Shown here one piece after another: positions 7,621 to 7,940 of a DNA stretch of 12,053 bases. The notes below the pieces were generated by a model. The model did not search any database. It saw only the letters and a program-made list of their open reading frames with translations, and was not told where the DNA came from. The DNA comes from a virus. Lineage: Duplodnaviria > Heunggongvirae > Uroviricota > Caudoviricetes. How positions within the stretch are numbered: position 1 is the first letter of the stretch; every line of letters starts with the position of its first letter. Where the stretch lies: IMG/VR virus record IMGVR_UViG_2850808358_000011. One strand, written 5' to 3'. A program made the translations under genes and the position numbers.

Positions 7621-7648
7621 TTGCACAGAAGTGCACAAATTTGCACAA
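7621..7648. promoter_or_regulatory. Three direct repeats of TGCACA(A) at exact 10-bp phasing; a fourth copy GTGCACAA at 7713-7720
   Basis: TTTGCACAgaaGTGCACAAAtTTGCACAA read directly; helical-turn spacing suggests a cooperative protein-binding site. Confidence 0.45.
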
Positions 7649-7940
7649 TTTTTTAGAGTAACTTTTTGCCCATACGGCCCAGTACTGGCGCGCCCGGAGG
7701 GCGATTTCGTGCGTGCACAAAAAACGGAGAGTTTTTCACGCGCAGGTGACGGGGGAACAGCACGCGTTTCAGGGGGTAAATTACATTTTCGCTAAAGACT
7801 GCGGGAATGCCCGACCGGGTTAGTTTTATCGCCAGCCAGAGCCGTTCTTACGGCAAGAGAGAACTGATACGGGGAATGTGACGAGTGAGCATGGGAACGG
7901 TGCGCCCGTGCGTAATACGCGGCGACTGCTGCGGGTTTAT

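Follow-up and report, generated by a model that had tools for sequence, protein, structure and literature searches.

A probable cos packaging site with phased TGCACA boxes in a P4-like satellite and in P88-type helper phages

We analyzed a stretch of viral DNA of 12,053 nucleotides (IMG/VR record IMGVR_UViG_2850808358_000011; the whole stretch is called the window below), which is a P4-like phage satellite of unusual gene content. A non-coding stretch of 1.1 kb, running from the second integrase gene to an Ogr-like gene, hosts phased TGCACA repeats. The 166-bp segment at 7622-7787 is likely the cos of the satellite, a copy of the cos of P88/Xuanwuvirus-type helper phages, in which TGCACA(A) would act as recognition boxes for the helper terminase. 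In its plan, the site is a cos like that of P2 and P4, of a distinct P88 sequence type, and not a satellite regulatory array.

The TGCACA array and the module shared with helpers

The + strand has three copies of TGCACA (7622-7627, 7632-7637, and 7642-7647) whose starts are 10 and 10 bp apart (the + strand sequence of 7620-7654 is TTTGCACAGAAGTGCACAAATTTGCACAATTTTTT), followed by a fourth + strand copy at 7714-7719. The original prediction, which described TGCACAA at 7622, 7632, and 7642 in exact 10-bp phasing, was correct in the starts and spacing of the hexamer and incorrect in the first copy, which is TGCACAG. The exact heptamer TGCACAA is therefore restricted to 7632, 7642, and 7714, the last of these having been placed at 7713. 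Most relatives have the complete TGCACAA as their first box. The hexamer is not over-represented in the whole window (5 copies vs. 7.05 expected), and four of the five copies are confined to 98 bp. The arrangement TGCACA-N4-TGCACA-N4-TGCACA is far beyond chance, with 0.01 occurrences expected even at 3 mismatches (200 shuffles). As had been proposed, the array is flanked by a block of GGTTACA/TGTAACC repeats (7140-7440), to which the TGCACA boxes are unrelated as a distinct repeat family, and by the Ogr/Delta-like gene (8008-8190); box 4 is 290 bp from the nearest gene start. The TGCACA repeats are real, non-random, and conserved, and the boxes with their 10-bp phasing were retained in every homologue examined.

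In a BLAST comparison of 6900-8250 with 50,697 phage records, the sole matching part was 7618-7787, with 72-81% identity to P88, PhiR44_2, 500465-2, Xuanwuvirus P88_4B11, and others, all of them P2-like, and the matches terminated at window positions 7781-7787. In P88, PhiR44_2, 500465-2, and a prophage of Escherichia coli EC556, the matched segment lies between replication-side accessory genes and the portal gene, the same location at which P2-family phages carry cos, where the portal gene is Q (PMC9122126). Therefore, the segment was identified as a cos packaging site. An alignment of seven satellites and three helpers showed the four boxes in register. The left flanks, of two unrelated types in the satellites and a third in the helpers, all converge exactly at box 1, and the satellite-helper homology ends near 7787. 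Features of the module are listed in Table 1.

Within the spacer between boxes 3 and 4, positions 7675-7705 differ in sequence between satellites and helpers and are the same in length. This central part is satellite-specific (CCCAGTACTGGCGCGCCCGGAGGGCGATTTCG), and the helpers carry a sequence of the same length with GGATCC-N5-GGATCC (~3053-3083 in locus L002). The cohesive end at 7745-7763 is putative, and its predicted position could be off by a few bp. We also observed coding sequences annotated as 'hypothetical protein' across the cos boxes and the cohesive end (L367, 774-1046; L369, 2920-3261; L002, 3092-3235; L003, 2967-3194). They differ in strand and frame and are probably spurious calls over a non-coding packaging site.

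Conservation was examined in helper cos regions that were collected from IMG/VR without use of the repeats, either by portal homology or by a 16-nt anchor inside the putative cohesive end, giving 92 unique sequences for column conservation and 91 for box positions. The anchor (7745-7760) retrieved 22 of the 92 regions, and the remaining 70 came from portal homology and were counted only with an exact anchor match, so the 100% conservation at 7745-7760 is no test of conservation because the match was required of all 92. The portal-based search of viral contigs yielded 80 loci with identical portals, a set that is unbiased with regard to the repeats and is not a diversity sample. A capsid-based search of genome contigs gave 7 loci only, in three of which (L010, L012, and L013) accessory genes lie between the portal gene and cos, which was not located there.

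Column conservation in the 92 regions was 30-60% left of 7621 and 84-98% across box 1 from 7622, reached 96-98% in boxes 2 and 3, and was 77-92% in the spacers between boxes. In the 91 unique helper regions, TGCAC starts were found at the same four distances from the anchor in 76-90% (Table 1), and the P88-type exceptions keep degenerate boxes (GCACAA) at the same places. Approximately 200 helper-phage loci with a portal gene and no alpha-like primase carry the boxes. Additionally, 1163 of 5426 complete E. coli genomes carry the P88-type cos, in most cases with helper-like identity and as helper prophages.

Because the boxes stand at cos in helper phages that have no satellite genes, their binder is most likely the helper-encoded terminase. 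The proposal that the repeats imply one more DNA-binding specificity thus stands as far as a separate specificity is concerned, whereas the frame of an element-encoded regulator is not supported, as the module is common to helpers without satellite genes. An electrophoretic mobility shift assay with element-encoded proteins would probably be negative.

One box layout in three cos types

The same layout was found in P2 and P4, for which positions were measured from the annotated cohesive ends (Table 1). The right end of P2 reads gtTGCATtcaagggTGCATgagatTGCATtaaggg and, 72 bp further from box to box, ggTGCATtaaaacc, followed by the cohesive end GGCGAGGCGGGGAAAGCAC, and P4 reads caTGCATcgataaggTGCATggcttTGCATgcg and acTGCATtaaaacc, followed by a cohesive end that begins with GGCGAGG. 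The counterpart of box 4 with its A-run is TGCATTAAAA at -29 in P2 and -28 in P4, and TGCAGAAAAA at -29 in phiCTX-type phages. The boxes of P2 and P4 have quite other gene neighbors, following old or psu and preceding Q or gop. In P4 (L006, 11497-11530), distal boxes 1 and 2 fall within a AGCCATGCA-N9-TGCATGGCT hairpin followed by TTT downstream of psu. This hairpin-plus-T-run was read as terminator-like, and the stretch may serve both as terminator and as cos boxes.

With the cohesive end as the sole anchor, we collected 113 unique cos regions of the P2 type, comprising 92 helpers and 21 P4-like satellites. TGCAT was present at -124/-121/-120 in 66%, at -111/-110 in 71%, at -101/-100 in 80%, and at -29 in 96% of these regions, and TGCAC was absent from the box positions in all 113. 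In the 21 P4-like satellites, TGCAT at -124/-111/-101/-29 reached 95-100%, and the P2-type exceptions retain degenerate boxes (CGCAT) at the same places. In the P2-type sites, different phages have unrelated DNA between the boxes, and the boxes thus stand out as a clear phylogenetic footprint. Single phages of Klebsiella, Salmonella (SopEPhi), and Burkholderia (KS5) also had the TGCAT/CGCAT layout, and Pseudomonas phage Dobby had a TGCAG variant of it.

In 54 unique regions of the phiCTX/Dobby type, GCAG(G) was found at -110/-109 and, 10 bp from these, at -100/-99, as well as at -36 and -28, that is, as two distal and two proximal boxes with an A-run after the last copy. TGCAT and TGCAC never reached 15% at any position in these 54 regions. 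In all three types, the last distal box and the proximal box are 71-72 bp apart with unrelated spacer sequences, and ~29-31 bp separate the proximal box from the cohesive end. The three box variants are mutually exclusive at these positions, and the distal and proximal copies of a type share one variant. At least three box variants, TGCA[T/C/G], thus exist in the family. A variant shared at a fixed distance would be expected of a single reader protein whose specificity differs between lineages. The published cohesive end of Ralstonia phiRSA1 had no exact match in the viral contigs, and the surroundings of the portal gene in Ralstonia YO152_1 and Aeromonas phiO18P gave no convincing candidate for a cohesive end, which makes these two phages uninformative either way.

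The present site shares with the P2/P4 cos several properties: it is the only stretch common to satellite and helper, it lies in the helper just beyond the 3' end of the portal gene, it has a G-rich 19-nt sequence in the same place (14/19 to P2), and it has three distal boxes at ~-123/-112/-102 and one proximal box with an A-run at ~-30. However, the boxes are TGCAT there and TGCAC(A) here, the putative cohesive end differs at 5/19 positions, and the satellite-helper homology continues past the cohesive end for ~7 bp there and ~24 bp here. The P4 cos lies after psu, whereas the present one lies between the repeat block and the Ogr-like gene. The rest of the P2 55-bp core is not recognizably conserved here: blastn-short searches of the P2 and P4 cos regions against a satellite locus nearly identical to the window returned only chance 11-12-mers. 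As the architecture is shared and the sequence of the P2/P4 core is not, the site represents a different sequence type, the P88 type, within the family.

Table 1. Features of the cos module in the window (92 helper regions for column conservation, 91 for box positions) and box positions in P2 and P4
Feature	Position	Strand	Remarks
Distal box 1, TGCACAG	7622-7628	+	Left boundary of the cos module; TGCAC at -123 in 76% of 91 regions
Distal box 2, TGCACAA	7632-7638	+	10 bp after box 1; columns 96-98% conserved; TGCAC at -113 in 86%
Distal box 3, TGCACAA	7642-7648	+	10 bp after box 2; columns 96-97% conserved; TGCAC at -103 in 89%
T6 run	7649-7654	+	Directly after box 3; 90-98% conserved
Spacer	7649-7713		Box 3 start to box 4 start 72 bp, length fixed; alignment gapless
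Proximal box 4 with A-run, TGCACAAAAAA	7714-7724	+	31 bp before the putative cohesive end; columns 92-99% conserved; TGCAC at -31 in 90%
Putative 19-nt cohesive end (cosN), GGTGACGGGGGAACAGCAC	7745-7763	+	14/19 match to the P2 cohesive end GGCGAGGCGGGGAAAGCAC; matching distance from the boxes
Segment beyond the putative cohesive end, beginning GCGTTTCAGGGGGTAAAT	7764-7787	+	Right boundary of satellite-helper homology
Window boxes, TGCACA	-123, -113, -103, -31		From GGTGACGGGGGAACAGCAC at 7745-7763
P2 boxes, TGCAT	-123, -111, -101, -29		From the cohesive end
P4 boxes, TGCAT	-124, -111, -101, -28		From the cohesive end

Recognition of the boxes and alternative explanations

The conserved geometry suggests how the boxes may be read. 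With 10-bp phasing, the three distal boxes (~-123/-113/-103) lie on one face of the helix, and as the gap of exactly 72 bp between the third box and box 4 with its A-run (-31) corresponds to about seven helical turns, the proximal box points in about the same direction. All four boxes would be occupied, on roughly one helix face, by multiple copies of a single helper-encoded protein, which would thereby fix the enzyme at a set distance from the predicted nicking site, and the geometry is compatible with an oligomeric protein that bridges or wraps the spacer. The satellite genome would then be cut and packaged into heads made by the helper. Candidate readers are the small terminase subunit gpM (Pfam Phage_term_smal) and, in the large subunit gpP, the helix-turn-helix (HTH) domain at the N-terminus (Terminase_5/HTH_23); the helpers encode both subunits. 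Among the satellite proteins, none was terminase-like, and the satellite must therefore display the signal of its helper. Which terminase type accepts the DNA would be set by the fifth base of the box (TGCAC here, TGCAT in P2/P4, TGCAG in phiCTX-like phages).

Lambda, P1, and SPP1 provide partial parallels to this proposal. In lambda cosB, the sites R3, R2, and R1 are bound by the small terminase subunit gpNu1 and an IHF site, I1, is also present; these R sites are located on the first-packaged side of cosN, beside the terminase genes, and require a bend induced by IHF. In both systems, several short motif copies stand beside the nicking site, would anchor the terminase, and depend on spacing. 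However, the boxes described here are on the side away from the head genes, have no conserved IHF consensus with them, and share no sequence or protein homology with the lambda site. The pac site of P1 consists of two clusters of TGATCA/G hexamers, with four and three copies, which flank the cleavage region and are controlled by Dam methylation. P1 pac and SPP1 pacL/pacR resemble the present array in their hexamer-sized boxes, helical phasing, two groups tens of bp apart, and, as proposed here, reading by the packaging enzyme. Unlike the present site, both belong to headful (pac) systems, and the P1 boxes are on both sides of the cut, whereas here all are on one side of the cohesive-end site.

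Several points weigh against the identification of the boxes as terminase sites in a functional satellite cos. The position of the cohesive end was assigned from the 14/19 match to P2 and the distance only, and box binding, cleavage, and packaging at the P88-type cos are deduced from sequence. Neither gpM nor gpP is singled out as the reader, because P2-type and P88-type head proteins all differ by 35-47%, with gpM and the gpP HTH conserved within each type, and PDB sequence searches with gpP and gpM identified no related solved structure. A satellite with a P88-type cos was not found among the IMG/VR viral contigs, so packaging of the element is putative, and the additional cos copies in satellite-bearing genomes, described below, are only presumed helpers in strains of which many are clonally related. 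Furthermore, the cos of P2/P4 has been described as a shared core of ~55 bp (PMC5694545, PMC9594776, PMC9122126), which would include the proximal box and not the three distal ones. The distal boxes may therefore only stimulate packaging or may serve another step, such as termination. A stimulatory role of the distal boxes fits the observation that longer flanks improved cosmid transduction (PMC9594776).

The main live alternative is a non-terminase role within cos, which we consider unlikely, though worth weighing. In this case, the 72-bp spacer would be bent, either by another architectural factor of the helper or the host that reads the boxes or through DNA shape (phased TGCA steps with the T- and A-runs), or the boxes would have a role in termination of packaging, like lambda cosQ, instead of initiation. 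The exclusion of the distal boxes from the core, the T6 and A6 runs that flank box 3 and box 4, and the fact that the 10-bp phasing and the gap of 71-72 bp are fixed while the spacer sequence is free would all agree with such a role. However, the P2 and P88 types use different boxes although both have E. coli as a host, which makes a host factor unlikely, and the 72-bp spacer has no conserved IHF consensus. If DNA shape were all that mattered, the fifth base would have no need to agree among the copies of a type. It is very improbable that the boxes are operators or activator sites read by a DNA-binding protein of the satellite, as might be expected of phased direct repeats, which are typical of regulator arrays, in a non-coding stretch of 1.1 kb upstream of an Ogr/Delta-like gene, since the same boxes occur in register in helpers without satellite genes and, in P2 and P4, in other gene contexts. 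In addition, a consensus scan of 6850-8250 scored no sigma-70-like promoter in 7600-8000, and the Ogr-type site is absent nearby: the sole match in the window to the Ogr/Delta dyad TGT-N12-ACA, which in Ogr/Delta-activated late promoters stands ~55 bp upstream of the start site, was at 2862-2879.

A role in replication or transcription termination is even harder to reconcile with these data. A cluster of DnaA boxes, or an accessory site of an origin at the GGTTACA block, has in its favor that GTTTGCACA and ATTTGCACA match TTWTNCACA at 8/9 and that the putative origin-like block is 180 bp away. The remaining two copies match at 6/9 only, the GGTTACA block occurs without the cos segment in some E. 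coli genomes, and the cos segment also occurs with another left flank, which leaves this explanation with hardly any probability. DnaA boxes as such were ruled out, given that the equivalent boxes TGCAT (P2-type) and GCAGG (phiCTX-type) cannot be DnaA sites. The array does resemble origin iterons, such as the P4 type I repeats bound by alpha and the ori repeats of phage-inducible chromosomal islands (PICI) and SaPI, in being ~10-bp direct repeats in non-coding DNA near a primase-helicase-like gene. Nevertheless, the boxes are conserved in helpers with a different replication system (gpA endonuclease) and are separable from the neighboring GGTTACA block, and iterons for an initiator of the element itself were rejected because the boxes are not restricted to initiator-encoding elements (~200 helper loci; 1163 of 5426 E. 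coli genomes).

It is also highly unlikely that the repeats form the stem of an intrinsic terminator (GTGCA-N6-TGCAC with a T-run) or are functionless and kept by recent recombination with helpers. The consensus scan did list 7631-7646 plus AATTTTTT as terminator-like, in one weak match, and P4 has boxes 1 and 2 in the hairpin after psu. However, the stem has only 5 bp, and its fold (-8.5 kcal/mol, z = -0.55) is no stabler than shuffled sequence. No end of a + strand gene is nearby, and none runs into the fold, since a hairpin-plus-T-run comes after the second integrase gene at ~6905-6935 and was read as its own terminator, and the helpers carry a separate GC-rich hairpin-plus-T-run, likewise read as a terminator, immediately upstream of box 1. 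Hitch-hiking without function was excluded by the boxes that stay fixed across P2-type sites with unrelated intervening DNA.

The satellite, its helpers, and packaging compatibility

The window was assigned to the P4-like satellites because it combines a C4 antisense RNA, isrK, an AlpA-like excisionase or regulator, a Toprim primase-like open reading frame, and an Ogr/Delta zinc finger. In an Rfam scan, the only matches in the window were isrK (1791-1872) and C4 antisense RNA (1898-1985), with none at the repeats. Both RNAs are in tandem on the + strand inside an open reading frame annotated as 'Icd-like' in a related element, and the tract 1791-1985 corresponds to the immunity (CI RNA) region of P4. 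A Toprim protein of 765 amino acids (3579-5876) occupies the position of P4 alpha. The gene for a second tyrosine recombinase of 333 amino acids (5879-6880, Int_N and Phage_integrase) lies mid-element and starts 3 bp past the stop codon of the primase gene. The Ogr/Delta zinc-finger protein (8008-8190) has 60 amino acids, and hpt is found at the window end. The E. coli STEC388 genome carries the same element between gcd and hpt, and another integrase stands there at the left end, beside gcd.

The window also encodes a homologue of the P2-family major capsid protein (9207-10619, with a probable start at ~9348; Pfam Phage_cap_P2, E = 1e-71), which is 35-37% identical to capsids of P2-like prophages in Rahnella, Edwardsiella, and Rouxiella and is located at 11454-12725 in locus L008. 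Neither sid nor psu was seen in the window. Redirecting head size with a capsid homologue in place of Sid would be unusual for a P4-like element and is reminiscent of SaPIbov5 Ccm.

Directly after the second integrase gene, the 7140-7440 block contains dense GGTTACA/TGTAACC repeats in both orientations around an AT-rich center, including three TGTAACC at exact 10-bp spacing (7322, 7332, and 7342). It is bracketed by the inverted repeat GGGTGCGGAAACGGGTTACA ... TGTAACCCGTTTCCGCACCC with G and C runs and looks like an origin or an array of integrase arm sites. A module junction was observed at 7512-7621, as some E. coli genomes match 6900-7511 only and others match only from 7622. The cos-Ogr-capsid half and the primase-integrase-repeat half appear to recombine independently. 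A perfect TATAAT (7968-7973), absent from the promoter-scan hits, lies 35 bp upstream of the Ogr-like start codon. No -35 hexamer was found at a usable spacing from it, with TTGATA 21 bp away, and the promoter of the Ogr-like gene may depend on an activator.

As the cos is of the P88/Xuanwuvirus type and not of the P2 type, the helpers should be P88/Xuanwuvirus-type phages. Satellite-type cos was the best match (at least 92% identity) in 56 E. coli genomes, 39 of which carry at least one further P88-type cos copy, compared with ~21% of all E. coli genomes for any P88-type copy. This co-occurrence points to helpers of the P88 type and is suggestive only, since the extra copies are presumed helpers and many of the strains are clonally related.

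With this identification, an apparent regulatory repeat becomes an annotated packaging site, and the helpers that mobilize the island are predicted to be phages of the P88/Xuanwuvirus type, the cos of which is found in about a fifth of complete E. coli genomes. Recognition of cos by the P2-family terminase is poorly defined, and the TGCAT repeats of P2/P4 may already have been noted in earlier primary literature. We tentatively suggest, as a possibility rather than an expectation, that the phased TGCA[T/C/G] array is a general and so far uncharacterized terminase-recognition element of the P2 family (Peduoviridae) and P4-like satellites. A single-base difference in the box, matched in gpM or the gpP helix-turn-helix, would then split helpers and satellites into packaging-compatibility groups, and the satellite with its own capsid gene would be a specialist parasite of P88/Xuanwuvirus-type helpers that P2 could not package. 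Beyond routine annotation, the family-wide box geometry and its three variants provide a testable model of terminase recognition and satellite-helper pairing. The box hypothesis therefore bears on terminase specificity, on the pairing of satellites with helpers, and on the design of P2/P4-based transducing cosmids.

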